Positions 33,754 to 51,666 of a DNA stretch of 64,000 bases are shown piece after piece. The translations under genes were made by a program, and so were the position numbers. Location of the stretch: contig CAWBKB010000001.1 of assembly GCA_963789265.1 (NCBI GenBank), positions 1,408,001-1,472,000 on the forward strand, in the 5' to 3' direction. Numbering within the stretch: the first letter of the stretch is position 1; each line of letters starts with the position of its first letter. This DNA is from an uncultured delta proteobacterium (GTDB taxonomy: Bacteria > Desulfobacterota > Desulfomonilia > Desulfomonilales > Desulfomonilaceae). Under the pieces are notes generated by a model. The model had not been told where the DNA came from, ran no database searches, and saw nothing but the letters and a program-made list of their open reading frames with translations.

Positions 33754-34896
33754 CTAGCTGGCCGCTATCGCACGAACTGCTGAAAGCGCGGCAGAGACAT
33801 CTTCAGCCGAGTTCAACGGTCCAAAGCTAAAGCGCACTGCTCCTCGTGGGCTGATCCCAAGATCCTCATGCACCAATGGAGCACAATGAAGGCCGCTCCG
33901 CGTGGCAATGTTGAAGTCGCCATCCAGGATGGCCGCGAAATCTTCCGGGTCGACATTTTTCACATTGCACGTAAGTAGCCCAATATGACGGTCCAGCCTC
34001 TCCGCGCAATACATCTTCACGTTCTTCATAGCGGAGAGACCGTCTCGGAGGGTTTGCACGAGCGCCATCTCGTGGTTGTAGATGCTAGCCATACCGCGCT
34101 GAGCAAGGTATCGCAATCCTGCGGACAGCCCGATGATTCCCATGACATTAAGGGTACCGGCTTCGAGCCGATCGGGATAAGCCTCAGGGTGTGCAGTCTG
34201 CCAAGAATCGGAACCGGTTCCGCCGAATCTCGTGGCTCGGATGTCGATTTCGTCCCGGAGTACGAGGCCGCCGATCCCTGTGGGCCCCATCAAGGACTTG
34301 TGACCTGTGAACGCAACTACGCTGACATGCATATCTCGCATGTTAATGGGCACGACGCCGGCACTTTGGGACACATCGAGAATGAACGGAATTTCCATCT
34401 CGGTACACATTCGGCCGACTTCCTGGACAGGCTGGATCGTTCCAAGGACGTTGGACACGTGGTTGAGAATTACGAACTTGGTTGAGGGTTTGATGAGCTT
34501 AGCCACGTCCTGTGGGTCTATAAAGCCGTGCCTGTCAAAAGGAATCAGGTCAAAGGTAACCAATCCCATTTCGCGCAAGTGATAGAGAGGCCTGAGGACT
34601 GAATTATGCTCCAGTCTCGAACTCACTACGTGGCATCCCGGTTCGATCAGCCCGAGGATAATAGTGTTGAGAGCATCGGTGGCGTTGCACGCGAAAACCA
34701 CGCGGTCGGCGCTGTCACCTCCGAAAAAGTCGGCGATTTGGTGTCGAACGTCCTGCACGTAGCGCTCGCACTGAACAGCCAAGTCGTAGCTGCCGCGGCC
34801 CGGAGAAACGCCCAACCGAGCATAGGTCTCAAACATTTCCTGAAGGACCAGGGAAGGCTTCGGGAAAGTTGTAGCTGCATTGTCCAGGTAAGTCAT
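33754..34896 (-). CDS. Cysteine desulfurase family protein (aminotransferase class V)
   Basis: YLDNAATT, EHNSV, TGHKSLMGP, EAGT, RSGLHCAP. Confidence 0.92.
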   Translation of the reverse strand: MTYLDNAATTFPKPSLVLQEMFETYARLGVSPGRGSYDLAVQCERYVQDVRHQIADFFGGDSADRVVFACNATDALNTIILGLIEPGCHVVSSRLEHNSVLRPLYHLREMGLVTFDLIPFDRHGFIDPQDVAKLIKPSTKFVILNHVSNVLGTIQPVQEVGRMCTEMEIPFILDVSQSAGVVPINMRDMHVSVVAFTGHKSLMGPTGIGGLVLRDEIDIRATRFGGTGSDSWQTAHPEAYPDRLEAGTLNVMGIIGLSAGLRYLAQRGMASIYNHEMALVQTLRDGLSAMKNVKMYCAERLDRHIGLLTCNVKNVDPEDFAAILDGDFNIATRSGLHCAPLVHEDLGISPRGAVRFSFGPLNSAEDVSAALSAVRAIAAS

Positions 34897-34922
34897 TGAC
34901 GAGCCAAGAAATTATTCGATCA

Positions 34923-35270
34923 TCAGCAACTTTTGGGGTTAGGCAATCCGGCCAGACGCCGTGCGCCATGCCGGATGCCTCCGGGAAATAGGCGCTCAAG
35001 TTCGAGTAAGCTCAAGCCGGTCTGTTTCCTGATGTCTCGATTTAGTGGGGCCCGGCCGTTGGCAAAATAAAAGCTGCGCAGGAAATGAATCATTTCCCAT
35101 TGGCTGTCAGTAAGTGATTGAAGTCCGGTTTCCGTGGCAAGAGCCTCAGCAATTGGCTCTGTCCAGCTTTCCGGATTGATGAGAAATCCTTCTTCATCGA
35201 AAAGGACTTCCTTGCCATCGATCACCCTGATCGCTTGATTGTGGGCCTGCTTGGAGGCTTTGCTCTCCAT
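34923..35270 (-). CDS. TusE/DsrC family sulfur relay protein (TusE-like, single C-terminal Cys)
   Basis: DEEGFL, LFPGG, AGLPNPKSC; the second DsrC cysteine is absent. Confidence 0.85.
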   Translation of the reverse strand: MESKASKQAHNQAIRVIDGKEVLFDEEGFLINPESWTEPIAEALATETGLQSLTDSQWEMIHFLRSFYFANGRAPLNRDIRKQTGLSLLELERLFPGGIRHGARRLAGLPNPKSC

Positions 35271-35275
35271 CGACG

Positions 35276-37949
35276 TCAGCTCGGCGCCTTTCCGTTGGTA
35301 ATGGACTGAAGCACTCTTTCCGGCGTGGCAGGAAGGTCGCAAATGCGTTCTCCGCCCGTGGCATCCTGTATCGCTGTAATGATCGCTGCTGCAGTGGGCA
35401 ACAATACAAATTCCCCCACTCCAACAGCGCCTAGCGTGCCCTTCTTGCGAGGCGTTTGGAGCAACAAGACCTCACTGTCAAAAGAGGTTTTCATCGTGGG
35501 GAATTTACTGGTAATCCAGTCTTTGGTCCTGCCGTGAACATACTCCTCACGAAGGGCCATTCCAGCGCCCATGTCCAGGCCGCCTTCTACCTGGCCTTCC
35601 ACCACACGAGGATTAATAACTGTTCCTGCATCCACAACCGCGGTCATCTTCAGTATGCGCACCTTTCCGCCCTGGGTATCCACCTCGACTTCAGCCATTT
35701 GCGCTCCGTGCACTCGAGACTCGAAAGGAGACCCCTGACCTGTTTTGGGGTCCATCAGGGTGGCGTCCTGCACTCTTGTTCCAAGATAACGAGTTGGTTT
35801 GCCGGCTGCCACCATTTCATCGTAACTTTTTGCACCGATTTCGGCCATGGCCTCCTTCAGGGCTTCTATCGCTTTCACCATCGCACCCCCGGCCATGTAA
35901 GTGATCCGACTGCCCGAAGCGGAACTTGCGTCTGGAGTGGTGTCTGTGTCTCGAGTGACCAGCCGAATCTTATGGGTCGGTAAGTCCATAAGGTGAGCGG
36001 CAATTTGAGTCAGCATGGCGTCGTTGCCCTCGCCTGGATCGGATACGGAGCCGTAAACTGTCAGACCTCCGTCCGGCATCAGCTCTACTGCCACATTGGA
36101 CCTGTCGGCTCCGCCTCTGCCAATGCCAAAGCTGCCACCGGCTATGCCCACGCCATGCCTGTATCTGCCCTGTTTAAACTCGGCGGCTTTTCGACAGGCT
36201 TCCACGTAGCGCGGTCTCAAGGCTTCAAGGCATCCTTGATACGGCCATTCTTCTATTACCTGCCCTGTTGAGATGGATTCCCCAGGTTTGAGCGAATTGA
36301 TCAGGCGAAACTCCAATGCATCCATTCCCAGCCTGCGTGACATAAGCTCCATTGCCGATTCCAGGGCGAAATTCACCTGAGGGGGTCCGGCCCCGCGAGC
36401 GGCTCCGCCCCAGGCCCCGTTCGTGTAGACTAGACTAGCCAAGGCTTTTACATTGGGGATGTTGTAAGAGCCACTTAGCATGTACAAGGACCTGAGCACG
36501 ATGGTTTTGCCGATGGACATGTGTGCCCCGTTGTCGACAGTGAAGTCGATAGCGTAAGCGGTGAGTTTCCCTTCCCGATTAGCCCCCAGTTTCACTTTCA
36601 TCTTGAATGGATGACGTTTGGTAGTAATCCACATAGATTCGGTAAGGCTACAGACGTAGCGCACAGGCCTCTCGAAATGCAACGCGGCTGCTGCAGCCAA
36701 GCCTTCTGCCGTGATGTCGATCTTGATACCAAACTGGCCGCCGATAAAGGCCTGTTCGTACCGCATGTTCTCCCATCCAAGCGCCTCTTGGAGAACCATT
36801 AGATGATGATGGATGTTTATGCTTCTGCCCACCACCACAAGTTTCGGTTCGTCTTCCTCTTCGCTGGTTTCAAGATAAGCGAGGGCGGCTTCGGGTTCCA
36901 TGGGGGACTGATGAATCAGTTGCGTGTTGAACTCCGCTTCCACCACCTCATCCGACTCGGCGAGGGCCGTGTCAGCATCGCCTTTTATCTGTGGATGAAC
37001 AAAACAGAGGTTAGGTATCTGCTCATGGAGTTGAATGCAACCTTCGGCAAGCGCTTGGTCAGTTGTTTCAACGATAGGTAAAGGTTCGTAACCCACGACC
37101 ACTGCTTCAGCCGCGGCCCGAGCTTGCTCTCGGGTTTCAGCAATTACCAGTGCTACGGCATCTCCCATCACATGGACTTTCTTGTCGCAAAGTAGGGGTT
37201 GATCGGTTTGCAGGCGATTGGAACCCTTGATGTGCTCCGCGGTCATCACGCCCACGACCCCTGCCATCTTCTCGGCTACGGAGCTATCTATTGATTTGAT
37301 GAATCCGTGGGAGCAGGGACTTCTCACCGCAGCCAATTCCAGGACCCCTTCCATCCGTATGTCTGCTGTAAACTTCGCCTCTCCACAGGCTAGCGCAAAA
37401 GCGTTTGGTCGGGGAAGAGGAACCCCAATAAGGCCGGCGCTGGAATCCGGCCGAACCGCTTCGGGCGTCTTCTGACCGCTCAAAAAGGCTGCAGCCAGAT
37501 GCACAGCCTCGATTATCTTCTTGTAACCCGTGCAGCGACAAAGGTTGCGATGCAGGGTTTCCATTATTAGCTTCGTGTCAGGGTGAGGGTTGCGGTCCAG
37601 CAACGCCTTGGTCGCCATGATCATGCCAGGCGTGCAAAAACCGCACTGCACAGCGCCAGCCAACACGAATGCCTCTTGGATGAGGTGCGGATTCTCGGGA
37701 GTACCCGAGACCTTCAATCGAGATGACTTCGGCTCCTTCCAAATCTGCAATCTTGGTGAGACACGAACGAACCGCCTTGCCGTTTACAAGAACTGTACAC
37801 GCACCGCATTGGCCTTTGCGGTCGCAGGATTGCTTGGTGCCGGTCAGGGACAAGTCTTGACGGAGTAGATCCAAGAGAACACGCCCGTCATCTGCGTCCA
37901 CTTTGCGCAAAATTCCGTTGACAGTTAGCCTGATGGTGCTCATAGACAT
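35276..37949 (-). CDS. Molybdopterin aldehyde oxidoreductase (MOP-type, 2x[2Fe-2S] + Mo domain), frameshift at ~37705
   Basis: TGTKQSC...CGACTV, VQCGFCTPG, NLCRCTGY, GGQFG, ARGAGPPQ, GVGE. Confidence 0.9.
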
Positions 37950-37983
37950 TTCCTCGATCCCACGTTCGTAACTAAATTTTGTA

Positions 37984-39105
37984 TCACAACAGAGGGATTT
38001 CCATTCCTCTGACAATTTTTCGGAAGTCATCGAATTCGACGCATTTCACAGCCTGTTTGGCGATTCTGCGCAAACACTTGTTGCATGAGGTACACTTCGC
38101 GGTCCGGCGGTCAGGACCCTGTAAGAGGCGCTCGGGGAAGTCGGGCTCGCAAATCACAGGTCTGCACACACCTATCAGATCAATTCCGCTTTTCAAGAGG
38201 TGTTCCATGACGCTCAGGGTACGAATCCCGCCGGTGAGCGCCAGAGGCGTATCGCCCGCTGCCGTCCTGAACGCGGTGATAGCGCCTTCAAAATAGGCTT
38301 CGCGGTCTCCAGCTTCCTTTTTGAGGCGAGCCCGAAGTGAGATCTGTTCCTTAATACCTCCGCTCATCTCAATAAGATCCACTCCGGCGTCCCTTAGTTT
38401 CTTCGCTACAAGCGCGTATTCCTCAGTGTCAGCGCCATCTTCGATGTAGTCTGCGGTGTTCAGCTTCCACAAGATGGGGAAATCTTCTCCGACTCTGCTG
38501 CGGATAGAATGGTACACTTCGATCGCAAATCGGGCCCGGTTTTCCGGGCTGCCTCCCCATCTGTCGTGCCGCTTGTTGATTGCGGGAGAAAGGAACTGGC
38601 TCACAAGATAGCCGTGGGCCCCATGCACCTGGACCGCATCAAAGCCGGCCTCTTTGACCCTGCGAGCAGCTTCGCCGTACATCAGGATCAGATCTTGGAT
38701 TCTGTCGTCTGTAAGACTTTCAAGCGACTCGGCTCCGGAAGCCGCGCCGTAAGAATAGCCGGGGCCGGCTGATCCTTGATGCGAGATCTGGACTGCGCAT
38801 TTGCAGCCTTCGCGGTGCGTGTGCATGATTCCGGATAATGCGCTCAAGCCCTCTACGAAAGAGTCATCCCAGATCCCCAATTGGTGTTCCCAGGACCTGC
38901 CTCGATCTTCTATCGAGGCACACCCGGTTATGATCAAGCCCGCGCCTCCCCACGCGATGTTGTAATAGAGCTTCAGGAGGTCATCGGTGACGCGGCCATC
39001 GGTATCTGCCATATATTCCATGGTGGCGGACCTGAGAAGCCTGTTTGTCACTAACAACGAACCGACCTGACAGGGTGTCCCAATGCCTATCATGTTGTCT
39101 CCCAA
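37984..39105 (-). CDS. NADH:flavin oxidoreductase (old yellow enzyme family)
   Basis: NRLLRSAT, GFDAVQVHGAHGYLVSQFLSP, RHDRWGGSPENRAR, CTSCNKC. Confidence 0.92.
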   Translation of the reverse strand: MGDNMIGIGTPCQVGSLLVTNRLLRSATMEYMADTDGRVTDDLLKLYYNIAWGGAGLIITGCASIEDRGRSWEHQLGIWDDSFVEGLSALSGIMHTHREGCKCAVQISHQGSAGPGYSYGAASGAESLESLTDDRIQDLILMYGEAARRVKEAGFDAVQVHGAHGYLVSQFLSPAINKRHDRWGGSPENRARFAIEVYHSIRSRVGEDFPILWKLNTADYIEDGADTEEYALVAKKLRDAGVDLIEMSGGIKEQISLRARLKKEAGDREAYFEGAITAFRTAAGDTPLALTGGIRTLSVMEHLLKSGIDLIGVCRPVICEPDFPERLLQGPDRRTAKCTSCNKCLRRIAKQAVKCVEFDDFRKIVRGMEIPLL

Positions 39106-39152
39106 GAGTCATCGGCAGAGATACCCGCGCACTGCCGGCGGTTCCACCTCTG

Positions 39153-40493
39153 TCAGCCGAGAGATTCCGCTATGAAGGCCGTGGTGAACTCACCTTTAGC
39201 GAACTTCGGGTGGTCGAGAATCTTGACGTTGGCCGCAATAGTGGTCTTGATCCCCTCTATCTGGAATTGGTTCAACGCTTTGGTCAAGCGCTTTCTAGAT
39301 TCATCTCTGTCTGTCCCCCATGCGATGACCTTTGCCAACAACGGGTCATAGTAAGGCGGCACCGAGCCGTTTTCTTCCAGTGCGTGGTCAATTCTCACAT
39401 GATCTCCCCCGTCGGGCAAAATCAAGCGGGTGATGCGGCCTGGCGATGGAAGAAACGTCTCGGGATCTTCAGCGTAGACCCGAGCCTCTATGGCATGGCC
39501 GCGCAATCGGACGTCCTCTTGCCTAAATGCAAGTTTCTGTCCCGACGCGATTTCCAATTGAGACTTCACGATATCAATGTCGGTCAACATCTCTGATACA
39601 CCATGCTCCACCTGTAGCCTGGCATTGACTTCCATGAAGTAGTAATGCCCGTCCTCGTCTCGTAGCCCTTCTAATGTGCCCGCGCCGTGGTAGTTCATCC
39701 TACTCACCAATCGCCTTGAGTAGTCGAAAAGCATTTCCCGGTCTTGAGCAGTCACAACGTTAGAGGGCGCTTCCTCGATGATTTTCTGGTGTCGGCGTTG
39801 GATGGAACACTCGCGTTCGCCGAGCAGGACGCAGTTGCCGTAATTGTCGGCAACGAATTGTATTTCGATATGCCTGGGCCTGGAAACCACCTCTTCTATG
39901 TAACAGGCCGACGATCCGAAGGCCATGTTTCCTATGCTGCAGGCCCGTTGGAATATTGTCTCTACTTGATCTTCCGAATCGACTCTCTCAATCCCTTTGC
40001 CGCCACCGCCTTTGTCCAGTTTGAGGAACAGCGGATAGCCATGCTCACGGCCGAACGCGATGACCTCTTGCGGATCGTGCACAGGGTCAAGGGTACCGGG
40101 GATAAACGGAACACCGACGCTGTCAGCAAGATGCCTGCAATAACACTTGGAGCTTATAGACTTCATGACCGCCGGGCCGGGCCCTACCCAGACGAGTCCA
40201 GCGTCCACCACTGCTTGGGCGAATATGGCTCGTTCCGAAAGAAAGCCATATCCAGGATGCACGGCATCGGCGCCTGTCGTTCGCGCCGCCCCAATGATGG
40301 CATCGATGTTGAGGTAGCTGTGCAAAGGATTAGAGGGACCAATCGGAACAGACTCATCCGCAGTCCGCACGTAGGCCGCGCCTCGGTCAGCCTCGGAATA
40401 AACCGCAACGGTGGCTATGCCCATCTCTCTACAAGTCCGAGTAATTCTGGCGACTATTTCCCCCCGATTGGCGATGAGCAGCTTCTTCATCAT
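39153..40493 (-). CDS. Biotin carboxylase subunit
   Basis: LIANRGEI, HPGYGFLSE, GGGGKG, RECSIQRRHQK, EVNARLQVEH, YYDPLLAK. Confidence 0.95.
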   Translation of the reverse strand: MMKKLLIANRGEIVARITRTCREMGIATVAVYSEADRGAAYVRTADESVPIGPSNPLHSYLNIDAIIGAARTTGADAVHPGYGFLSERAIFAQAVVDAGLVWVGPGPAVMKSISSKCYCRHLADSVGVPFIPGTLDPVHDPQEVIAFGREHGYPLFLKLDKGGGGKGIERVDSEDQVETIFQRACSIGNMAFGSSACYIEEVVSRPRHIEIQFVADNYGNCVLLGERECSIQRRHQKIIEEAPSNVVTAQDREMLFDYSRRLVSRMNYHGAGTLEGLRDEDGHYYFMEVNARLQVEHGVSEMLTDIDIVKSQLEIASGQKLAFRQEDVRLRGHAIEARVYAEDPETFLPSPGRITRLILPDGGDHVRIDHALEENGSVPPYYDPLLAKVIAWGTDRDESRKRLTKALNQFQIEGIKTTIAANVKILDHPKFAKGEFTTAFIAESLG

Positions 40494-40496: not shown

Positions 40497-40727
40497 CTAG
40501 TCTCCGTCAACCACTTCGAGGATGACCATCGGCGTTCCTACATCCAGTTCGTCCCATTCTTTGGACAGCACCTTCGCGACAGTGCCATCCCATTCAGACG
40601 TAACCGATATTTCCGTTTTCATGCAATTGATAACCGCAACCTCTTGGCCTTTAGTGACCTTATCTCCTTCACTGACGACAACTCGGGCACAGAGCCCTGG
40701 AACAGCAGCATCCACGCTTCTTTCCAT
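40497..40727 (-). CDS. Biotin carboxyl carrier protein
   Basis: 76-aa biotinyl domain with CMKTE (variant of AMK). Confidence 0.85.
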   Translation of the reverse strand: MERSVDAAVPGLCARVVVSEGDKVTKGQEVAVINCMKTEISVTSEWDGTVAKVLSKEWDELDVGTPMVILEVVDGD

Positions 40728-40854: not shown

Positions 40855-41865
40855 TCAGGCCATAGCTTCTTCCACGAAAAGCTTATTCTGGTCGACACGC
40901 GCCTGAGTAGCCTCTTCCTGCGTACACACAGCAAACTTGATGAAGTCTCTAGCTGGTGCCCCTTGACCAATCTGCCACAGGTCAGCATTGATCACACTTA
41001 GCGCGCACATATATCCGCCCAGAGTAGGGCCGTCGGCAATCAGCAGTACCGGTGTATTGCCACAAATGTTCAAGGCTCCACGCATGGCGTAGCCGTGATC
41101 GATTATGTTGGATGGGTGGCTTCCGCCCACTCCGCCGTCAGGACGTGAGAAAAAGCTGTCTGGTAGGGCCTCAAGTCTATAAGCGGAGCGGTTGGACGTG
41201 TGCTGAATTTTGAATGAGTGACTGAACAGGTATTCCATGCCCTCATCGGTGGCATAATCGGGACAAGTGTTCGGTCCGGGTACGGCTCGCAAGGTCCATT
41301 CCTTGGAATATTTCGGGATCACTTCTTTCTTGAGTTTTCTGCCTAACAATTCTTTCAGGCCGCGTAATGGCTTCCCGAACTTCACGACATCTCCAGGCTG
41401 CAACTTCCGACCTTCAAATCCGCCGTAACTTCCGAATATGCAGGTGGACTTACTCCCAAGATAGGGTGGAACGTCGATGCCTCCAGCAATCCCGATGTAC
41501 CACCGAAAACCATACTTCCCGATATGTGAAAACTTGATTACATCCCCTTTGTGAACCTCGACCGTTTCCCACATGGATATGGCCTGATCGTTTATGGATG
41601 GGGGATTAGGCGTTCCGGCTACGGCAATTACCGTGTCGGCGCCGAATTCAGCCTGGAAAAAGCCGGCCGTAACTTCAAGACCAGCCTCGCCCACGGGATT
41701 GCCGACCAGGAGATTGGCATATCCCAGGGCCACGTTATCAAAAGCGCCGGAAGGAGCCATTCCCTTTCCCAGAAATCCGAGCCTTCCAGGCCAATCCTCC
41801 ACGAGCGTTTCAAGTCCACCGTGTAACACTTTAAGCATGTTCTTTGTCTCCTTTCGTGAGGTCAC
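40855..41865 (-). CDS. Carboxyltransferase A/B subunit (urea carboxylase/PxpC-like)
   Basis: VEDWPGR...PSGAFD, ANLLVGN, YLGSKST, HPSNIID, DGPTLGGY. Confidence 0.9.
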   Translation of the reverse strand: MTSRKETKNMLKVLHGGLETLVEDWPGRLGFLGKGMAPSGAFDNVALGYANLLVGNPVGEAGLEVTAGFFQAEFGADTVIAVAGTPNPPSINDQAISMWETVEVHKGDVIKFSHIGKYGFRWYIGIAGGIDVPPYLGSKSTCIFGSYGGFEGRKLQPGDVVKFGKPLRGLKELLGRKLKKEVIPKYSKEWTLRAVPGPNTCPDYATDEGMEYLFSHSFKIQHTSNRSAYRLEALPDSFFSRPDGGVGGSHPSNIIDHGYAMRGALNICGNTPVLLIADGPTLGGYMCALSVINADLWQIGQGAPARDFIKFAVCTQEEATQARVDQNKLFVEEAMA

Positions 41866-42932: not shown

Positions 42933-44243
42933 TCAGGTGCCGGTAATCTCGGTGAATGCCTTCTCCAATATGTCCAGACCTTCCTCCAACTGATCATCGG
43001 TGATGACCAGAGGCATCAAGGTACGGATAACATTATTGAATCTTCCGCACGTGAGAACTATGAGGCCATGTTCGTAAGCATAGTTGATGATTTTCTTTGT
43101 TTCCTCCGCAGCCGGCTCCTTGGTCTTCCGATCCCTCACCAGTTCCAGGCCAATCATGGCGCCAAGGCCGCGGACATCGCCTATGAGCGGGAATCGTTCG
43201 TACATTTCATCAAAGCGTTGTTTGATAATCTCACCTATTCTTGCGGCCCTGGTACTCAAATCCGCTTCAGTCACAAAATCAAGAACAGCCAAGGCGGCCT
43301 TACACGAAAGAGGATTGCCGGAATATGTTCCGCCAAGTCCCCCAACCTGCGGCTCTTCCATCATTTCAGCCCTGCCGGTAACTGCCGCAAGAGGCAGTCC
43401 TCCCCCTAGAGATTTGGCCATTACAATGACGTCCGGTGCTACTTCATAGTGCTCGATTGCGAAGAGCTTTCCGGTTCGGCATATACCGGTCTGTATTTCG
43501 TCCGCAACGAACACGATCCCGTGCTTCTCGCAGATCCGGCTAAGTATGGAAAAATACTCCGGCGGAGGGACGACGAATCCACCTTCACCGAGGACGGGTT
43601 CCACCACCATAGCAGCGGTTTCTTCGGCTGCTACGTGGATCGCAAAAAAAGTCTCCAAGTGCTGCGCACAATAAACGCCACAATCGGGATAGGTCAGCCC
43701 GAACGCACATCGGTAGCAATACGCGTAAGGCATCCGATAGATTTCCGGAGCGAATGGGCCGAAACCGAACTTGTAAGGTTTCACCTTACTGGTCATCGAC
43801 ATGGTCAACAGTGTGCGTCCGTGAAAAGCGTCTTCAAACGCGATGACAGCGGGTCTGCCGGTATGACGACGAGCCACTTTGACGGCATTTTCCACGCCTT
43901 CCGCGCCACTGTTGACGAGGAGGGTCTTCTTCTCAAAATCGCCGGGAGTTAGCTGGTTCAGCCGAGAGGCCAGCTCCAGATACGGTTCGTACATGACAAT
44001 GTGAAAACACGTATGTAGGAATCGGTCCGCTTGATCCTTAATCGCTGCAACGACTTTTTCATTGCAATGCCCCACGTTATTGACGCCGATTCCACCGGCA
44101 AAATCCAGATATCTATTGCCTTCGACGTCCCAGATTTCAGCCCCTTTCGCCCGGGAAACAAAATAGGGGGTGACATAAAAGGGGCCCCTCGGCACTTTCG
44201 AGAATCGCTCTTCCAGGAGGGCCGCATTCGTTTTCTCAGTCAA
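42933..44243 (-). CDS. gabT: 4-aminobutyrate/5-aminovalerate aminotransferase (class III)
   Basis: DFAGGIGV, NSGAEGVENAVK, EPVLGEGG, DEIQTG, AKSLGGG, GGTYSGNP; TTG start after gagaggag. Confidence 0.9.
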   Translation of the reverse strand: MTEKTNAALLEERFSKVPRGPFYVTPYFVSRAKGAEIWDVEGNRYLDFAGGIGVNNVGHCNEKVVAAIKDQADRFLHTCFHIVMYEPYLELASRLNQLTPGDFEKKTLLVNSGAEGVENAVKVARRHTGRPAVIAFEDAFHGRTLLTMSMTSKVKPYKFGFGPFAPEIYRMPYAYCYRCAFGLTYPDCGVYCAQHLETFFAIHVAAEETAAMVVEPVLGEGGFVVPPPEYFSILSRICEKHGIVFVADEIQTGICRTGKLFAIEHYEVAPDVIVMAKSLGGGLPLAAVTGRAEMMEEPQVGGLGGTYSGNPLSCKAALAVLDFVTEADLSTRAARIGEIIKQRFDEMYERFPLIGDVRGLGAMIGLELVRDRKTKEPAAEETKKIINYAYEHGLIVLTCGRFNNVIRTLMPLVITDDQLEEGLDILEKAFTEITGT

Positions 44244-44427
44244 ATCGAAACTCCTCTCGCAAGATTTGGTATCATAAAGTGTATTTGCAATGATGACTTC
44301 CTGCGGTACTGGACTATATCCGCTCAGCCGAACAATCCGGCTAGTCAAGTCAAGGGGTTGTGGATGAGGCCCGAATCGGCGCCAGTGGCAATGACGTTCG
44401 CCCTAACACCAGACTCCTCCCTACGCC

Positions 44428-45180
44428 TTAGAGAACAGGTGCAGCCACCAGCACCCCGTTGTCCTGAAGGATCTGACGGACGGCCCTGACTATGCTCAGC
44501 GCACCGGGAGTGTCGCTGTGAACGCAGACCGAACTGCCCTCGATGGAGATTTCCTTGCCGTCTTCGGCCACAACTTTCTGCTCTTTGACCATCTTAGCCA
44601 CCCTCTCGGCCACATGGGTGGGATCGTGGGTTCCATGCTCGCGTGTGATCACCAGATTACCCTCGGCATCGTAACCAAGGTCAGCGTAGAGCTCAAACAC
44701 CGTGCGTATCCCCATCTCGTGAGCCACGTCAGCGGCCACTCCCTTCCTCATAATGTACAGGTAGAGATTTGGATCCACATCTTTCAGCGCCTGGCATACG
44801 GCGCTGGCGATTTCCTCCCGCCGGTGCACCATGCCGTAAAGAGACCCGTGCGGCTTCACATGGTGGAGACGGAGGCCGGTTGCCTCAACGAACGCTTTCA
44901 GCGCACCGATCTGGTACAATACGTCACAGTAGACTTCATCAGGGGTAACGTTCATTTCCCTGCGACCGAATCCCTGAAGATCGGGCAATCCGGGATGCGC
45001 ACCGACCTGCACCCCGTACCTCATGGCAAAACCAACCGTCTTCTTTATCACCGTTGGATCCCCTGAGTGGAAAGCACAGGCGACATTTGCAGAGCTGATG
45101 TATTGCATGAATTCTTCATCATTTCCCATTTTGAAAATGCCAAAGCTTTCACCCATGTCAGCGTTCAGATCGATGTTCAT
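44428..45180 (-). CDS. pxpA: LamB/YcsF family protein (5-oxoprolinase subunit A-like)
   Basis: DLNADMGESFG, ANVACAFHSGDP, GAHPGLPDLQGFGRR, HVKPHGSLY, CVHSDTPG. Confidence 0.93.
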   Translation of the reverse strand: MNIDLNADMGESFGIFKMGNDEEFMQYISSANVACAFHSGDPTVIKKTVGFAMRYGVQVGAHPGLPDLQGFGRREMNVTPDEVYCDVLYQIGALKAFVEATGLRLHHVKPHGSLYGMVHRREEIASAVCQALKDVDPNLYLYIMRKGVAADVAHEMGIRTVFELYADLGYDAEGNLVITREHGTHDPTHVAERVAKMVKEQKVVAEDGKEISIEGSSVCVHSDTPGALSIVRAVRQILQDNGVLVAAPVL

Positions 45181-45203: not shown

Positions 45204-46163
45204 TTATTGACCTTTCATGGACAGCCGGAATTGGTCCATCACTACGGCAAAAATGAGGAGACAGCCCATTACCATCATTTGCAGGTAGGAGCTGATGTTC
45301 ATAATATCCATCCCGTTCCTCATCAGGACGATCAGGATGGCCCCGAAAATTGCTCCAATGACGCTCCCTTCACCGCCTCTGAGTGAGACCCCGCCAATGA
45401 CTGCCGCTGCTATGGATTCCAAAGGTAGAGCCGCTCCAAGATTTGGTTCGCCTGAAGCAACCCGAGCGGTCAGCATCACGCCGGTAAGGCCCGCCAGTGC
45501 GCCGCACAGGATATAGGCGAGACAACTGTATTTCTTCACCGCAATGCCCGACAACCGGGCCGCTTCCTCGTTGCCTCCAAGGGCATAGAAGTACCGACCG
45601 ATTCTGGTTTTGGTGAGCATGATGTATATGATCGCCACGACGAGGATCGCCACCAACAAAGGAACTGGAACGCCCCAAACTTTGCCGATACCCATGTAGC
45701 GGTTGAAATCGGCAGGCAGATTGAAAATCGGCACACCTCCAGAAATGAGAAGAGCCAAGCCCTGTGCCACTGACATCATTCCCAGTGTGACCACAAACGG
45801 GGAAACGCGGAATACAGCAATCGTGATACCGTTGAGTGTCCCTACCGCAGTGCCGGTTGCCACACCAGCCAGCAGCGCGGCAATGATGGCAACCGCAGGA
45901 TTAGGAAACCATACAACGGTACTAGCCGTGACGATGCTGGTCAGTGCCACCGAAGATCCGACGGAGAGATCGAACCCGGCACACAATATGGTAAGCATCT
46001 GTCCCGCCGTGATTATGGCGAGGTACGTGGCTTGCCTGCTGACGTTCACCATGTTCGAAAACGTCATGAACCGACTTTCTGCAGCACTGAACAGGATAAG
46101 CAGCGCAACCAGGAGAAATGGAAGCACCCCGACATTGACAAACGTTCGTTTTAGAAACTCCAC
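45204..46163 (-). CDS. ABC transporter permease (RbsC/CUT2 family)
   Basis: FDLSVGS, PFVVTLG, GGNEEAARLSG, IAAAVIGGVSLRGG. Confidence 0.92.
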   Translation of the reverse strand: MEFLKRTFVNVGVLPFLLVALLILFSAAESRFMTFSNMVNVSRQATYLAIITAGQMLTILCAGFDLSVGSSVALTSIVTASTVVWFPNPAVAIIAALLAGVATGTAVGTLNGITIAVFRVSPFVVTLGMMSVAQGLALLISGGVPIFNLPADFNRYMGIGKVWGVPVPLLVAILVVAIIYIMLTKTRIGRYFYALGGNEEAARLSGIAVKKYSCLAYILCGALAGLTGVMLTARVASGEPNLGAALPLESIAAAVIGGVSLRGGEGSVIGAIFGAILIVLMRNGMDIMNISSYLQMMVMGCLLIFAVVMDQFRLSMKGQ

Positions 46164-46215
46164 TGAATGTCTACCTTTTCTTGATAGAATTGTGGCACAC
46201 CATCTGCTGTCTTCA

Positions 46216-47799
46216 TTAGGCCTGGGAACCGCCTCGAACGTTGTGACTCGTTACGAAGCGGTCATAATCGTAGCCGAAGCAGCTTGTGAGAATCTTCTCC
46301 TCGGTGGCTTCGGACCCAGGCATGATCGAGCATATCGATCCGCCGTGCATCACCATCACAGTGTGACAAAGATGCAGAATCTCCGGCAATTCTGAAGAAA
46401 TAAGGATCACAGCGGCACCTTTTTCGGCGTAGTCTTTGAGCAACCGGTAAACGTCACGTTTGGCACCAACGTCGATCCCGCAACTGGCCTCATCGAAAAT
46501 GAACACCTTTGTGTCTCTGATTAATCCCCTTGACAGCATAACTTTCTGCTGATTACCCCCACTGAGTTCATTGACAGTTTGATCGATGCGTGACGGGCGA
46601 ATCTTGAGCTTGTCGATGAGATTCTTCACAGTGGACTTTTCACGTCCCGCGTCTATGAACAGTCTGTTTTCAAAAAAGGGAATCGCGGCCAGGGTCTGAT
46701 TCTCCCTGATCGAACGGCACAATACTAAACCTTCTTTGTGCCTGTCCGCGGGGAAATAGAGTATCCCGCTTTCGATAGCCTTCGCGGGAGTGATTTTCTC
46801 CAATGGCTGGTCAAAGAGAAGCTTGGTACCGGCTGTAATCTTCTCCAAACCGAACATGGCACGTCCCACCCGGGATTTGCCTGCTCCTACCAGTCCGGCG
46901 ATACCGAAAATCTCCCCTTCCCTCACCGTGAAGCTGATGTCTCGGAGTCCGCTGGCCGTGGAGAGTCCTTCCACTGTCAGCACGGGTTTGCCTGGGACGT
47001 GGGTGATCCTAGGGAAAATTTCTGCGTACTCCCTGCCGGTCATCAGAGAGATCAGTTTCTTGTCGTCGGCCTCTCCCATGCTGAGCGTAGCAACATGTTT
47101 ACCATCTCTCAAAACCGTGATCCGGTCGCCTATCTTCTTTAATTCTTCCAGGCGATGGGAGATGTAAACGATCCCCACCCCATCGTCTTTGAGTTTCCTG
47201 ATGATCTCGAAAAGCTTGGCAACTTCTTTGTCCGTGAGGGAAGCGGTGGGTTCGTCCAGGATAAGCACTGATATCTTCTGCTGAAATGCCTTGGCGATCT
47301 CCACCATTTGGCGTTCGGCCCGCTTCAGGCCGCCGACCCTGGCCTGCAGATCGAGCTTGAAATCAAGGCGATTCAATGTCTCCTCGGCCTTTTTACGCAT
47401 AGCCTCCTTGTCGAGAAGGCCTCTCTTAACCATTTCCCGGCCGAGGAAGAGATTCTCAAGCACGGTAAGTTGGGGCACTAGGCTGAATTCCTGGTAGACC
47501 GCAGAGATTCCCATCATTCTGGCATCGTAGGAACTTCGGAATTCAACCTTTTCGCCGTTGACAAAGATCTCCCCGTCATCCGGAAGGTACGAACCCGCGA
47601 TGATTTTTGTCAGTGTCGACTTTCCCGCTCCGTTCTCGCCGAACAGCACATGTACCTCACCGGGCATGAGCTCAAAAGAGATCCTGTCCACCGCGAGGAC
47701 ACCAGGGAATCTTTTCGTGATATTGAGAACACTCAGGACGGGGACAGTCACTATTTTTTCTCCTTTGCTCGATCCTGCCACTTCCTCCGGAATACTCAT
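46216..47799 (-). CDS. ABC transporter ATP-binding protein (RbsA/CUT2, two domains)
   Basis: GENGAGKST, LDEPT, LSGGNQQK, SSELPE. Confidence 0.95.
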   Translation of the reverse strand: MSIPEEVAGSSKGEKIVTVPVLSVLNITKRFPGVLAVDRISFELMPGEVHVLFGENGAGKSTLTKIIAGSYLPDDGEIFVNGEKVEFRSSYDARMMGISAVYQEFSLVPQLTVLENLFLGREMVKRGLLDKEAMRKKAEETLNRLDFKLDLQARVGGLKRAERQMVEIAKAFQQKISVLILDEPTASLTDKEVAKLFEIIRKLKDDGVGIVYISHRLEELKKIGDRITVLRDGKHVATLSMGEADDKKLISLMTGREYAEIFPRITHVPGKPVLTVEGLSTASGLRDISFTVREGEIFGIAGLVGAGKSRVGRAMFGLEKITAGTKLLFDQPLEKITPAKAIESGILYFPADRHKEGLVLCRSIRENQTLAAIPFFENRLFIDAGREKSTVKNLIDKLKIRPSRIDQTVNELSGGNQQKVMLSRGLIRDTKVFIFDEASCGIDVGAKRDVYRLLKDYAEKGAAVILISSELPEILHLCHTVMVMHGGSICSIMPGSEATEEKILTSCFGYDYDRFVTSHNVRGGSQA

Positions 47800-47849
47800 T
47801 TGGGGGTAGGCACGGCAGCCTACCCCGTTACTTGCACCAAATCACCCTT

Positions 47850-49016
47850 TCACTTTTTGGGTTCGACCTTGAATACCGGGCGGAAAGTCCGGGGCCCAAA
47901 GAGGAGTTCGTAAGGGTACTTATCAATGTTTGCTTTGGTAAGGGTCGGGATTAGGGGGCCGGATCTGAACGGAAAGTCTTTTCCGGGTTTCTGGCCGTTG
48001 AGAATCCGGACCATCATGTCTACCGCCATCTGACCCTGGGTCACAGTGAGGTCTGATGGCGCGGCGGCTACACTGCCTTTCTTGATCTTCTCGTATAAAG
48101 GCGGGATGATGTAGGTAGACACAATCTTAACGGATTTGGCCCGCCCTGACTCAGCCAGGGGTCCTACCGCGGCATCGGCGGCAACCGCATTGGCCACCAG
48201 ATAATCTATTTTAGGGAAGGTTTTCAGCGAATTCTCAATCAGACCTAGCTGTACGTCTTTTCCCGTGTCACCCCACTTGACTGCGAGGATGTTTACCTTG
48301 CCATCAAACTTTTTGATCGCATCTTTGAAGCCGTCCAGAGTGTCCGGCGCCCAGCCCGAACCAGCAGGACCAGGCAAGAAGACCACGTTGATATCTTTCT
48401 TGCCCTGGGCTTTCGCGTCTGAGACAACGAAATCTCCCGCGTGAAGTCCCATATCGAAAAAAGATACGAGTGCCTTGGCTGCTATGTCTTGAGCTTGAAT
48501 GTCGTTGATCACTTCAATAACAGGAATTTTTTTCTTGGTTATCTCCTGCACCACAGGGTCCAGTGCGGTGTATGAGATCGAAGCCAGGATAATGCCGTCT
48601 ACCTTCTCCTGAGCAAGGTTCTCCACCTGTCCGACCTGTTGCTCCACCTCGGTGTAACCACCGGCCGCAACAAGGTGAATTCCCACTCCCAACCGCTTGG
48701 CCTCTGAAATGATCCCGTAATCCACAGCAAGCCAATACGGGTCTTTCAAGTGCGGGAAGGAAACACCAATAACGTATGGCTTGTTGGCCTTTTCGGGAGG
48801 CGCCCATTCTTCCTGCTTTGGCCCCTGTAAGCTCGCAGCAGGGCGTCCTGATTTTTTCCCTTTCACGTCGTACTTGCCATAGTAAGAATTGACCTTAACC
48901 GGCCACCAAGGTTTCTCTGCCCCAAAACAAACGGCGCTGCTGAACAGAAACAGAGCGCACACTAGCGCCGTTGCAGGAACGAGGCCTCTAAGAGATGCGG
49001 ATCCTCCGATACTCAT
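47850..49016 (-). CDS. TorT-like periplasmic substrate-binding protein
   Basis: Signal peptide; FPHLKDPYWLAVDYG, AGGY, PGPAGSGW and WGDTGK resemble the TorT family. Confidence 0.8.
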   Translation of the reverse strand: MSIGGSASLRGLVPATALVCALFLFSSAVCFGAEKPWWPVKVNSYYGKYDVKGKKSGRPAASLQGPKQEEWAPPEKANKPYVIGVSFPHLKDPYWLAVDYGIISEAKRLGVGIHLVAAGGYTEVEQQVGQVENLAQEKVDGIILASISYTALDPVVQEITKKKIPVIEVINDIQAQDIAAKALVSFFDMGLHAGDFVVSDAKAQGKKDINVVFLPGPAGSGWAPDTLDGFKDAIKKFDGKVNILAVKWGDTGKDVQLGLIENSLKTFPKIDYLVANAVAADAAVGPLAESGRAKSVKIVSTYIIPPLYEKIKKGSVAAAPSDLTVTQGQMAVDMMVRILNGQKPGKDFPFRSGPLIPTLTKANIDKYPYELLFGPRTFRPVFKVEPKK

Positions 49017-49472: not shown

Positions 49473-49506
49473 CACCTGGACAGGCTGCTTTGTTCCGACG
49501 CGTATG

Positions 49507-49523
49507 AGCAATATTTGGGCCAA
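49507..49523 (-). promoter_or_regulatory. sigma54 -24/-12 promoter
   Basis: TTGGCCCAAATATTGCT (GG-N10-GC), next to a sigma54 activator gene. Confidence 0.75.
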
Positions 49524-49654
49524 ACATGGAAGTGGGAGACCAACGAGGCGAAGAATATGTCTAAGTTTGTGATTTAATAACGAATGTTTTACACGATGGT
49601 GGGTTGCACACTCTGAGGATATGGTTTAAGTTCGTGTTTGTGCGAAGGCACAAA

Positions 49655-49748
49655 TTATGCGCGATTGCATAAAAAAGCAACAGCATGTGCTTGGCGGCCT
49701 CATAAGAAGACGCTTATGCAGTAATGCATCAAAGATGCAGATTTGCAT
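49655..49748. promoter_or_regulatory. Three ATGC-N6-GCAT palindromes, probable upstream activator sites
   Basis: atgcgcgattgcat (49657), atgcagtaatgcat (49716) and atgcagatttgcat (49735), ~130-230 bp upstream of the sigma54 promoter. Confidence 0.6.
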
Positions 49749-49965
49749 CATTGCCATCGGCCTCTATAGCAATTGTCCAAAAAGATGTCCTTTTGCTCAT
49801 CTGAGGCATCGTCATCCAGACTGTAGAGGCACGGCATGCCGTGCCCCTACCGAACATCGTCATTCCCGCGCACGCGGTCCAGCGAAAGCGGATCAGACTG
49901 GACCTCGGATCAGAATCCCATAGCGACTGTGGTACCGGCGTGCCTCCCGTTCGCACTTCGGAAAG

Positions 49966-51666
49966 TCAATGACCCGAGTATCGTTTCATCTTGCGCGAAA
50001 TGGTCGACTGGTTGATCCCCAGGTGCCGGGCCGCCTGTTGCTGTGAACCATACTTCCGCACAGCTCCCGCTATTTGCTCGAGTTCTAGTTGGCCGATTGC
50101 GCTCTTTAGAGAACCCTGTTCAAGAGCCCGCCTAAGTTGGGCAGGACCCACGAACTGACAGACAAGGGGCGGAAGCTCGCTCAATGTAACGACTTCTGCC
50201 TTGCTCAGAACCATCATGGATTCGACAATATTTTGAAGCTCACGCACATTACCGGGATAATCATAGTGCAGCAGGGCATCAAGAACCTCTCCGTCGATGG
50301 ATCTGTTGAGATCGTGCTTGGCCTTGAACCTTCTCGTGAAGAAGGTGATCAGATCCAACATATCCTGGGTGCGGCCTCTGAGCGGCGGAATGGCTAGGGA
50401 AACCACGTTCAACCGATAGAAGAGGTCTTCCCTGAAGGTGTTCTTTCGCACTTGTTCGGCCAGATCCCTGTTGGTGGCTGCAATGACTCTCGTATCAACC
50501 GGTCGAACGGTGGAACCTCCGACGCGCATAACGCACTTCTCATCCAAGAAGCGCAGGAGCTTGACCTGCTGGCTCAAGGGGGCTTCGGAAATCTCGTCCA
50601 AGAATAGGGTGCCGCCTTCCGCCATTTCAACCAGTCCGGGCTTTCCTTTGGCGCCTGCGCCGGTAAACGCTCCTTTTTCATATCCGAACAGCTCCGACTC
50701 AAACAAAGTCTCGACAATTGATGCGCAATCAACCCTGACAAACGGCCCACTGGATCGTTCAGATTTCTGGTGGATCAGTTTTGCTACCAGACCTTTACCT
50801 ACTCCGGATTCTCCGGTAATCAAGACAGTAGTATCGAAACGAGCAACCATGAGGGCCCGTTCATAGACGGATTCCATCTCCTTGCTGCGGCAAACGAAAA
50901 AGTTGCTCTCGAGTTCCCGGAGGTGGAAGTCTGACAACTCGCTCCGGTACTGATCGACGAGCGCTTTACTCTCTTCCAGTTCGCGACGTATGCGGTCAAG
51001 TTCCGTTATGTCACGGTCGTTAATAATGATGACGTCGATTTCTCCCCGAGAATTCAGTATCGGATTTCCGGTGGCCAGCAACTTCTTGTTGGCTTTTGTG
51101 GTTTGAACCAGAGTCACGGTAGTCTTGCGTTTCAGCACCTGCACCGTCACCGATTCGTCCACGTACCCCTCAGCTACCAGGTCTGCCACGTTGCGTCCCA
51201 GGACATCCGGGGCGTTGCACCCGGTGTTCCGCTCGGCTGCCTTGTTGAGCTTTACGACGTTGCCGTGCCTGTCTGTGATCCACAGGCCGTCGTAGGACGA
51301 CTCCATGATTGCATCCAACAGTTGCGCCATCTGTTTGTACGATTCAAGTTCCCGTGCGTACTGGTCGTACGCAAAGACAGCCTGGAAAAAAGAAAAAACT
51401 CCTTCAATTCTATTCTTGAACCGCAGGGGTAATCGATTGGTGATGTAGAGCTTCCCTCCAATGGAGTCACGAACTCCAAGCTGCGGGATGCCGTCCTGGA
51501 AGACTGTTGAAATATCTTCCCAGACAGAACGTTGAATATCTCGCGCATGGCTGCCCACCAGTTCTTCCTTGGACAGGGCCAGGAATCTGGCAGCAGCGCC
51601 GTTTGCGTACGCTATAATGCCGGAGGGCAGTACGACAACGATCCCGTCCGGCACAATGTCCATCAT
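49966..51666 (-). CDS. PAS-PAS sigma54-dependent transcriptional activator (Fis HTH)
   Basis: GESGVGK, ESELFGYEKGAFTGA, FLDEI, FREDLFYRL, PGNVREL, AARHLGINQSTISRK. Confidence 0.95.
   Translation of the reverse strand: MMDIVPDGIVVVLPSGIIAYANGAAARFLALSKEELVGSHARDIQRSVWEDISTVFQDGIPQLGVRDSIGGKLYITNRLPLRFKNRIEGVFSFFQAVFAYDQYARELESYKQMAQLLDAIMESSYDGLWITDRHGNVVKLNKAAERNTGCNAPDVLGRNVADLVAEGYVDESVTVQVLKRKTTVTLVQTTKANKKLLATGNPILNSRGEIDVIIINDRDITELDRIRRELEESKALVDQYRSELSDFHLRELESNFFVCRSKEMESVYERALMVARFDTTVLITGESGVGKGLVAKLIHQKSERSSGPFVRVDCASIVETLFESELFGYEKGAFTGAGAKGKPGLVEMAEGGTLFLDEISEAPLSQQVKLLRFLDEKCVMRVGGSTVRPVDTRVIAATNRDLAEQVRKNTFREDLFYRLNVVSLAIPPLRGRTQDMLDLITFFTRRFKAKHDLNRSIDGEVLDALLHYDYPGNVRELQNIVESMMVLSKAEVVTLSELPPLVCQFVGPAQLRRALEQGSLKSAIGQLELEQIAGAVRKYGSQQQAARHLGINQSTISRKMKRYSGH

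Follow-up and report, generated by a model that had tools for sequence, protein, structure and literature searches.

The window analysed here is a 64-kb stretch (64,000 nucleotides) of the genome of an uncultured delta proteobacterium of the Desulfomonilaceae, an anaerobe of the sulfate-reducer type (GenBank assembly GCA_963789265.1, contig CAWBKB010000001.1, positions 1,408,001 to 1,472,000). It was found to possess, at 33754-51666, a cluster of co-oriented genes for a four-part, biotin-type carboxylase, a LamB subunit and a GabT transaminase, carried on an island which is bordered by repeats of a tRNA-Phe gene. The cluster is considered reasonably likely to encode a biotin-dependent pathway from 2-pyrrolidinone (gamma-butyrolactam) to 4-aminobutyrate (GABA), organized as a sigma-54-controlled operon.

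In the proposed pathway, a TorT-like ABC system would import the lactam and a biotin carboxylase (BC) would, with ATP and bicarbonate, carboxylate the biotin on a 76-aa biotin carboxyl carrier protein (BCCP). A two-subunit carboxyltransferase (CT) of the urea carboxylase type would then transfer the carboxyl group to the ring nitrogen, after which LamB would hydrolyse the activated ring and the resulting carbamate would lose CO2 to give GABA. GabT would convert GABA to succinate semialdehyde, which is probably oxidised to succinate by a molybdenum-containing aldehyde oxidoreductase (Mo-AOR), the molybdenum cofactor of which is probably matured by an adjacent TusE-like protein and a desulfurase. 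A pathway of this kind had been put forward in an earlier interpretation made from the letters of the window alone (here the sequence-only reading). Its statements on the island, the type of the CT, the missing urea and guanidine partners and the linkage to gabT were borne out by the present analysis, while the linkage of the Mo-AOR, TusE-like and desulfurase genes to the pathway was not.

Gene organization of the cluster

Gene calls were based on the open reading frame (ORF) listing together with Pfam and NCBIfam profile scans of the window, and the features are collected in Table 1. Every gene named by the sequence-only reading as part of a co-oriented run was recovered, all of them on the minus strand. 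In the order of transcription, an activator is followed by the binding protein, ATPase and permease of the ABC importer, LamB, GabT, the two CT subunits (CT_C_D, then CT_A_B), BCCP, BC, a flavoprotein of the old yellow enzyme (OYE) family, the Mo-AOR, the TusE-like protein and the desulfurase. In the coordinates given below, G000 stands for the genome assembly of the window itself (with C1, C3, C6 and so on as its contigs), and labels such as L003 or L020 stand for related loci.

Table 1. Features of the gene cluster and of the island that carries it, by position in the window
Feature	Position	Strand	Evidence
Distal att-like direct repeat, tRNA-Phe(GAA) 3' half (anticodon loop to CCA)	32960-33012	-	Repeat search; 53 nt long, sharing 96% identity with the proximal copy
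First GC-rich terminator-like hairpin past the last gene	33308-33324	-	6 G-C pairs, then T-rich tail
EF2568-type cysteine desulfurase/selenocysteine-lyase-like pyridoxal phosphate enzyme	33754-34896	-	PF00266 6.8e-86; TIGR01977 436.6 bits (cut-off 377)
TusE/DsrC-family sulfur-relay protein	34923-35342	-	PF04358 7.8e-27; TIGR03342 72.6 bits (cut-off 53.5)
MOP-type molybdopterin aldehyde oxidoreductase (Mo-AOR), in two frames	35276-38030	-	Fer2, Fer2_2, hammerhead, MoCoBD_1/2
OYE-family FMN flavoprotein	37984-39105	-	PF00724 8.3e-59
Dedicated biotin carboxylase (BC)	39153-40493	-	PF00289, PF02786, PF02785; AccC equivalog not reached (525.1 vs 626.5)
Minimal 76-aa BCCP with MK biotinylation motif	40497-40727	-	ORF listing, NCBIfam
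CT_A_B, carboxyltransferase subdomains A and B	40855-41865	-	PF02626 3.6e-75; TIGR02712 positions 443-763, 281.1 bits; 3VA7 E 4.2e-58
CT_C_D, carboxyltransferase subdomains C and D	41862-42848	-	PF02682 5.1e-39; TIGR02712 positions 789-1091, 225.5 bits; 3VA7 E 3.1e-39
GabT, 4-aminobutyrate:2-oxoglutarate transaminase	42933-44348	-	TIGR00700 566.7 bits (cut-off 506.65)
LamB/PxpA-family hydrolase subunit	44428-45180	-	PF03746 4.4e-95
CUT2-type ABC importer, three genes	45204-49016	-	Pfam/NCBIfam scans
ABC permease	45204-46163	-	Pfam/NCBIfam
Double ABC ATPase	46216-47799	-	Pfam/NCBIfam
TorT-like periplasmic binding protein	47850-49016	-	Best solved relative CUT2 binding protein 4YHS, E 1.5e-80; TorT 3O1H, E 1.2e-35
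Conserved small ORF, ~91 codons	49197-49472	-	First gene after the sigma-54 promoter, between activator and binding protein
Candidate sigma-54 (-24/-12) promoter	49507-49522	-	One mismatch to TGGCAC-N5-TTGCW
Three ATGCA-N4-TGCAT-type palindromes, candidate activator binding sites	49657-49749	-	135-240 nt upstream of the -24/-12 element
Sigma-54-dependent activator, PrdR-like, PAS and HTH domains	49966-51666	-	PF00158 1.5e-66; NF041552 407.3 bits (below the 795 cut-off)
Tyrosine integrase, 5'-truncated, 211 aa, catalytic domain only	52648-53283	+	PF00589 4.1e-21
Proximal att-like direct repeat, tRNA-Phe 3' half	53301-53353	-	Repeat search

The carboxyltransferase and its biotin partners

The CT pair was assigned to the urea carboxylase type rather than the PxpBC type, as the sequence-only reading had it, on the basis of profile scores, matches to a solved structure and a CT tree. 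The two proteins scored 281.1 and 225.5 bits against the urea carboxylase model TIGR02712, compared with 169.2 bits against PxpC and 49.1 bits against PxpB, and neither of the latter equivalogs was reached (NF045499, 169.2 vs 500; TIGR00370, 49.1 vs 145.55). The closest solved relative of both subunits is the urea carboxylase of Kluyveromyces lactis (PDB 3VA7). All domains of TIGR02712 are present, distributed over four proteins (454.6, 281.1, 225.5, and 37.1 bits), with a sum of ~998 bits as against a cut-off of 1303.85. The KYNPPRTWTPEG motif was located at residues 198-209 of the CT_C_D protein.

A quick maximum-likelihood tree was calculated from 94 rows, consisting of 37 split CTs, 40 of 80 fused forms (every second one being dropped), 13 CT-only forms and four PxpB sequences as outgroup; long branches were flagged by the program. 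The split CTs grouped in a single, long-stemmed clade (SH-aLRT 99), which stands beside all sampled fused and CT-only forms (SH-aLRT 91). The sequence-only reading had likened the enzyme to the fungal protein LamA, which is not among the rows.

Residues were compared on an alignment of 134 rows. The Lys of the KYNP motif was found in 37/37 split rows, aligned with the catalytic Lys of the K. lactis enzyme (K1605 of urea amidolyase), which is the likely general base of that CT (PMC5770610). PxpB has an Arg at this position. The Asp of the GLGDVYLGAP loop, which we take to be a urea-binding residue, is present in 78/80 fused and 13/13 CT-only sequences (91/93 together) and in 0/37 split sequences, in which the loop is replaced by an F/W-rich NSG(C/G)G-FWPGG segment resembling the loop of PxpB. 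As the Lys is kept and the Asp loop is exchanged for a PxpB-like one, the split family joins a biotin-type catalytic base to a more aromatic substrate loop of lactam-enzyme character.

The MK motif of BCCP was found in all 35 aligned sequences. The split-CT family comprises >500 protein clusters at E up to 1e-10 (the best 120 at >=68% identity), for which the source databases give the names "urea carboxylase" or "allophanate hydrolase subunit 1", and no fungal protein was named among the 93 longer homologues. The sequence-only reading had noted the lack of an allophanate hydrolase or carboxyguanidine deiminase, and this now extends from the window to the genome and to 36 related loci, in none of which an allophanate hydrolase above cut-off or a DUF1989 protein was found. 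In the genome, which is 95.6% complete, the best match to the allophanate hydrolase model TIGR02713 reached 225.2 bits (cut-off 511.05), and DUF1989 (PF09347), presumably the Pfam family of carboxyguanidine deiminase, gave 0 matches. Pfam scans of the 64-kb window identified no amidase-signature or DUF1989 gene. A separate, canonical pxpABC is located on contig C3.

Conservation of the core and linkage to GABA genes

When a genome collection was scanned with the CT_C_D protein as the query, 36 related loci were obtained, which belong to Thermodesulfobacteriota and Bacillota. Carriers in culture include Desulfotruncus arcticus DSM 17038, Desulfocucumis palustris NAW-5, Propionispira arboris DSM 2179, P. 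raffinosivorans DSM 20765 and Anoxynatronum sibiricum Z-7981. A gene was counted as present at >=40% identity over >=30% of the query, or through a BLAST cluster with Pfam-scanned representatives, and GABA genes were counted within 10 kb; many contigs are short and the counts are to be taken as lower bounds. The conserved core was found to consist of CT_C_D, CT_A_B (35/36), LamB (35/36) and BCCP (34/36), so that the biotin enzyme is paired with LamB in 35 of the 36 loci. BCCP was detected with a hidden Markov model made from homologues, and both misses are contigs which end inside the core. BC was identified in 23/36 loci, with an additional BC fragment where L032 is cut off at its start, and a biotin ligase in 3/36.

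At least one GABA-catabolic gene is present in 16/36 loci. GabT was found in 10/36, a tungsten-type aldehyde:ferredoxin oxidoreductase (AFOR) in 9/36, AbfD with 4-hydroxybutyrate CoA-transferase in 2/36 (L020 and L031) and an iron-type alcohol dehydrogenase (Fe-ADH), in both cases with GabT, in 2/36. Four of the five GabT copies scanned (L011, L014, L019, and L020) pass TIGR00700, the fifth, from L032, having 503.3 bits as against 506.65. After the core of L020 come AbfD, 4-hydroxybutyrate CoA-transferase, Fe-ADH and GabT in the same orientation, which make up the full pathway of Clostridium aminobutyricum; the AbfD of L020 matches that of C. aminobutyricum (1U8V) at E 4.6e-202 and the CoA-transferase match has E 1.8e-153. 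AbfD/AbfT directly follow the core in L031, and GabT and Fe-ADH precede it in L035. As gene orders vary among lineages, the linkage of the core to GABA genes has arisen more than once. The sequence-only reading had made its case depend on the recurrence of gabT and the AOR beside the core in other genomes: gabT does recur, in several arrangements, whereas none of the 36 loci has the Mo-AOR, the TusE-like protein or the desulfurase.

No amidase-signature or DUF1989 protein was detected among the 107 neighbour proteins scanned, and no hit was obtained in the 592 kb of loci when two amidase-family proteins from the genome were used as tblastn queries. In the loci without GABA genes, 61 neighbour proteins were scanned and no other catabolic theme was apparent, the genes being unrelated housekeeping ones.

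The TorT-like binding protein and its transporter were found in 7/36 loci. Elsewhere, the ABC importer is replaced by a DUF1097 membrane protein (15/36), by a second small membrane protein (7/36) or, in L024, by an NCS1 permease, and this exchange of uptake genes fits a substrate which is imported. A ~205-aa polytopic membrane protein with no Pfam match is encoded between BCCP and BC in Desulfobacterales-type loci (L015:12568-13176, L017:3418-4041, L018:12815-13438, L020:12403-13008, L022:12386-13003, and L023:9885-10487) and is a candidate lactam channel. By profile comparison it is unrelated to DUF1097 (probability 0.1). In Anoxynatronum-type loci, a MerR regulator, a 4Fe-4S ferredoxin, a tungsten-type AFOR and a ThiS/MoaD-like small protein precede the core (L025:4604-4891, L027:6950-9679, and L038:7806-9647).

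The molybdenum enzyme cassette and the OYE-family protein

The AOR has its best solved relative in the aldehyde oxidoreductase of Desulfovibrio gigas (E 1.6e-153). Its domain set is complete, with the gene lying in two frames which match NF045668 at positions 4-83 (76.3 bits) and 79-904 (672.9 bits; family cut-off 1100). One extra G in a GGG run at 37704-37707 (minus strand) places the N-terminal Fer2 part in a different frame from the rest. At 37707, one letter is missing from contigs of a relative of ~93% identity, which come from two runs of one study, and the AOR of that relative is therefore continuous; in a near-identical run, no contig was found across 37676-37759. Further conserved genes are split in G000, namely PxpB (C3:1012681-1013296), two accC-like genes (C4:233674-235012 and C5:581429-582764) and a paralogous desulfurase, and PxpB is an open 244-aa frame in four genomes of the same genus. 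Since the assembly breaks other conserved genes too, the frameshift is likelier to be an assembly error, a real mutation being the alternative. The assembly probably contains many indel errors, and its apparent pseudogenes should probably not be trusted.

A paralogous trio of AOR, TusE-like and desulfurase genes (72, 67, and ~80% identity) was identified at G000:C6:254118-258306 (L043:11118-15306). Its AOR is intact at 888 aa and its desulfurase is the one split into two frames. Upstream of the trio are PPDK_N and PEP-utilizer genes and a gene for an ABM protein; a molybdopterin oxidoreductase and an IS1595 transposase are encoded downstream of it, and there are no lactam genes in the neighbourhood. 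Its recurrence in this other context indicates that the three genes are a self-contained module, which probably comprises a molybdenum enzyme and a sulfur (or selenium) relay that would serve its cofactor. The TusE-like protein of the window has a single C-terminal Cys, and its translation is likely to begin at the Met of residue 25.

According to the sequence-only reading, the Mo-AOR replaces the NAD-dependent GabD. This is not supported as stated, given the lack of linkage in the 36 loci and the paralogue elsewhere; what speaks for it is only the analogy to AFOR, a non-homologous enzyme. By that analogy, a role of the Mo-AOR as succinate semialdehyde oxidase in this cluster, not necessarily an exclusive one, is plausible, because AFOR is found at the same place in nine loci, because no succinate semialdehyde dehydrogenase in the genome passes its cut-off (best 417 bits vs 646) and because the nearest relatives of the AOR are aldehyde oxidoreductases. 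The genome as a whole encodes well over a dozen molybdenum enzymes of the xanthine dehydrogenase family and ~20 OYE-family genes (tblastn).

The OYE-family protein has a C-terminal CxxCxxC...C motif and no NAD(P)H/FAD domain, and the four Cys residues therefore place it with the FMN/[4Fe-4S] type which lacks the NAD(P)H domain. Partial matches, all below cut-off, were obtained to the BaiCD, FadH and bilirubin-reductase N-domain models. Relatives beside the core were found in 4/36 loci (L006, L009, L012, and L013) at 51-62% identity, with a further one in L032 at 31%, and the paralogues within the genome reach at most 40%. As the core-linked relatives are closer than the paralogues, the OYE is taken to belong with the lactam core and not with the AOR cassette.

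Assessment of the proposed substrate and alternatives

Several observations weigh against a pathway from 2-pyrrolidinone to GABA. The substrate was assigned from neighbouring genes only, in a family which is known from genes alone. GabT-type transaminases also take 5-aminovalerate and beta-alanine, and the ring size is for this reason fixed only where Abf genes are present. No GABA gene is within reach in 20/36 loci, and L007 has kept the whole operon with GabT absent. NCBIfam, at subfamily level, names LamB a 5-oxoprolinase subunit. As to the later steps, the AOR is frameshifted in this assembly, its cassette is missing from all related loci and duplicated in another context, the semialdehyde could be taken by the products of four AbfD-like genes and several aldehyde dehydrogenases in the genome, and the OYE has no place in the proposed scheme.

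Alternatively, the core could open a different cyclic amide, or several, with the same chemistry and the same transaminase. Candidates are delta-valerolactam (2-piperidone), which would give 5-aminovalerate, 2-azetidinone, which would give beta-alanine, and a substituted pyrrolidinone. The loci silent on ring size and the general promiscuity of the GabT family toward omega-amino acids agree with this, as do the NCS1 permease (hydantoin/allantoin/uracil type) encoded between LamB and CT in L024 and the OYE link in four loci, which suggests prior reduction of some substrates. However, the C4-specific AbfD and 4-hydroxybutyrate CoA-transferase are encoded immediately after the core in L020 and L031, and five of six scanned GabT copies (that of the window and four of the five from related loci) pass the GABA transaminase equivalog, with L032 just under it, and a different or wider substrate range is accordingly given a small chance. 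An enzyme acting as a biotin-assisted 5-oxoprolinase, which would produce glutamate and have GabT and AOR as unrelated neighbours, appears improbable: a plain 5-oxoprolinase is unlikely because a canonical pxpABC is present elsewhere in the genome, the CT proteins remain far under the PxpB and PxpC cut-offs, and glutamate requires none of the GABA genes linked in 16/36 loci. Such an enzyme would nevertheless agree with LamB passing the PxpA subfamily model NF003814 (318.9 bits, cut-off 226; the equivalog NF003813 failed at 274.4 vs 392) and with the Asp-less, PxpB-like loop of the CT. It is also the case that 5-oxoproline is far commoner in nature than 2-pyrrolidinone. In mycobacteria, PxpB/PxpC homologues hold the biotin of BCCP and are described as having no urea carboxylase activity (PMC13012033).

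The OYE and the Mo-AOR could also act before the lactamase: a cyclic imine or N-heterocycle would be turned into an (unsaturated) lactam by a molybdenum hydroxylase, and the OYE would saturate it, in parallel to anaerobic nicotinate fermentation. The OYE, AOR, TusE-like and desulfurase genes do come after BC on the same strand of the same island, separated by short gaps and with no strong terminator before 33324, the OYE orthologues beside the core come from two phyla, and a dedicated sulfur/selenium relay is typical of hydroxylases with a labile chalcogen ligand. Against this stand the best family and best solved relative of the AOR, both aldehyde oxidoreductases, its absence from the 36 loci, the C6 cassette which is without OYE or lactam genes, and the fact that no gene points to a candidate precursor; this order of events is thus held to be doubtful. 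A bolder reading, for which the prospects are equally slim, is a complete anaerobic route on the island from an N-heterocycle or cyclic imine (e.g., pyrrole, 1-pyrroline, or 3-pyrrolin-2-one) to succinate. In such a route, a sulfur/selenium-matured molybdenum enzyme would add the lactam oxygen, the OYE would saturate the ring, the biotin enzyme would N-carboxylate and open it, and GabT would feed central metabolism, and if true this would be the five-membered-ring counterpart of anaerobic nicotinate fermentation. A last alternative, given in JGI annotations of the homologues, is a urea or guanidine carboxylase in split form that would serve nitrogen assimilation, in line with the database names and with the best family and solved-structure matches, all of them to urea carboxylase. 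This is very unlikely, since neither an allophanate hydrolase above cut-off nor DUF1989 nor a guanidine riboswitch was found. Furthermore, no amidase-signature gene occurs in the 36 loci, the loop Asp of the fused and CT-only forms is absent throughout the split family, LamB is invariably linked, and the summed TIGR02712 score is under the cut-off, leaving this function scarcely credible.

Relation to known systems

The proposed conversion of 2-pyrrolidinone to GABA has a close counterpart in Aspergillus nidulans. The fungal LamA is reportedly one fused urea-carboxylase-like protein of ~1240 aa which holds the BC, CT and BCCP parts, and we know of no assay of the A. nidulans lactam enzyme. The two systems have in common a urea-carboxylase-like biotin protein paired with LamB, in the fungus genetically tied to the use of 2-pyrrolidinone via GABA; they differ in that the parts said to be joined in one fungal protein are four proteins in the window. 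The genes lamA and lamB are given as the lactam catabolism genes of the AmdR regulon, together with GABA genes (PMC8016842). A LamB-containing PxpABC paralogue is required for growth of Pseudomonas putida on butyrolactam (bioRxiv 10.1101/2021.12.09.472016). This butyrolactam hydrolase, PP_2920-2922 of strain KT2440, is likewise a bacterial enzyme containing LamB/PxpA, with three subunits and its own specific regulator. It differs in being described as three subunits without biotin parts.

The K. lactis urea carboxylase (PDB 3VA7/5I8I) shares the catalytic Lys motif, BC and BCCP with the enzyme of the window, whereas the latter is encoded in four genes, belongs to its own clade, is without the loop Asp and is accompanied by LamB instead of allophanate hydrolase. 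PxpABC, as found in Escherichia coli (YbgJKL), Bacillus subtilis and Corynebacterium glutamicum, is similar in its LamB/PxpA subunit, the CT_C_D/CT_A_B fold and the Asp-less substrate loop, and differs in that the canonical form has no dedicated BCCP/BC and that PxpB has an Arg where the window has the catalytic Lys. The genes of GABA fermentation in C. aminobutyricum (GabT, 4-hydroxybutyrate dehydrogenase, AbfT, and AbfD) adjoin the core in L020 and, in part, in L031 and L035; the operon of the window has GabT only, and the Mo-AOR stands where other loci carry AFOR or Abf genes.

Hydantoinase-type enzymes and PxpABC are known to open lactams at the expense of ATP. To our knowledge, N-carboxylating lactam opening is not known for any biotin enzyme, and biotin-dependent opening has been implied only by fungal genetics and never assayed. 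The full-text literature searched contained no characterised biotin-dependent lactamase, no split urea-carboxylase-like enzyme paired with LamB and no demonstration of lactam N-carboxylation. This window newly provides the borders of the island, a Mo-AOR cassette that is not conserved with the core, the analogy to tungsten AFOR and the comparison of the loops. If the proposed reaction is correct, a ring amide nitrogen would be a new acceptor class for biotin carboxylases, many database annotations (urea carboxylase, allophanate hydrolase, and 5-oxoprolinase) would be corrected, and an anaerobic enzyme would be at hand for lactam chemistry of the nylon-precursor type. The split-CT family is common in anaerobes, and the operon travels on a tRNA-Phe island.

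Promoter and operon signals

The TGGC and TTG elements of the candidate sigma-54 promoter are invariant columns in an alignment of five loci (the window and four related ones). Over the whole window, the pattern was found 41 times compared with 32 expected in shuffles, which is not above chance, and the weight of the candidate therefore lies in its conserved position, the window-wide count carrying none. The palindromes upstream, which may bind the activator, are kept in 4/5 aligned loci (the window, L003, L006, and L007) and are degenerate in L004. Counterparts of the small ORF with codon-like conservation were identified at L003:3259-3618, L004:3367-3636, L006:3555-3884 and L007:4763-5293, giving five Desulfomonilia-type operons when the window is included; the ORF matches no Pfam family, and no membrane segment is predicted in it.

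The hairpin past the last gene is weak evidence for a terminator, as 22 terminator-like sites were found compared with 18.9 expected, and overall neither promoter nor terminator counts of the region exceed those of shuffles. The intergenic gaps across the operon are short, and co-transcription from the binding protein through to the desulfurase is plausible. A search of Rfam gave zero matches at E up to 0.1 over 30000-56000, hence no riboswitch, the guanidine type included.

The tRNA-Phe island and its surroundings

The two att-like repeats are spaced 20,341 nt apart and delimit an island of 20.3 kb (33013-53300). A third copy of the repeat is the sole tRNA-Phe gene of the genome (G000:C1:1547318-1547393); the window itself has no tRNA according to ARAGORN, the repeats being without the tRNA 5' half. 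The truncated integrase ends 18 nt from the proximal repeat and has 70% identity to a 366-aa integrase which is located directly beside the intact tRNA-Phe. Given these repeats of the tRNA-Phe 3' half and the adjoining integrase, the cluster is cargo of the island, which demonstrates directly the island-borne nature claimed in the sequence-only reading. The island is probably no longer mobile.

The CT gene is present in 5/41 related genomes, its own included (same genus 0/6, same family 3/24, and same class 1/16). Repeats of a tRNA 3' end, an adjacent, if truncated, integrase and absence of the CT gene from the genomes of the same genus were thus all found for this island. In the CT tree, the lineage of the window clusters with Bacillota sequences and not with other Thermodesulfobacteriota, a grouping which would fit horizontal transfer. 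The G+C content does not set the island apart (0.52-0.55 vs 0.51-0.53 for the contigs), and in relatives, no counterparts of the window's flanking genes adjoin the operon.

The stretch from 53354 to G000:C1:1547393 is a further island of ~86 kb, which ends at the intact tRNA-Phe with the full-length 366-aa integrase. There are two islands in tandem at one tRNA-Phe, and the one with the lactam cluster is the second of them. The neighbouring ~86-kb island contains a CynS cyanate lyase gene (63099-63542, minus strand). Close to the distal repeat, on its outer side, are a UPF0236-type transposase-like gene (28967-30487, minus strand; 8 tblastn matches in the genome) and an unknown 243-aa ORF (32157-32888, minus strand; 6 tblastn matches). 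At 54081-59162 (plus strand), a hybrid sensor kinase of 1693 aa is encoded, which has a receiver domain and four or more PAS domains and which gave 82 tblastn matches in the genome. What looks like one sensor kinase with two frameshifts is found at 21836-24871 (minus strand), in the form of three overlapping ORFs with PAS and HATPase domains. Two adjoining ORFs at 9265-10721 (minus strand), which may be one frameshifted gene, are composed almost entirely of ankyrin repeats (300 bits to Ank_2), an unusual feature in a free-living bacterium.

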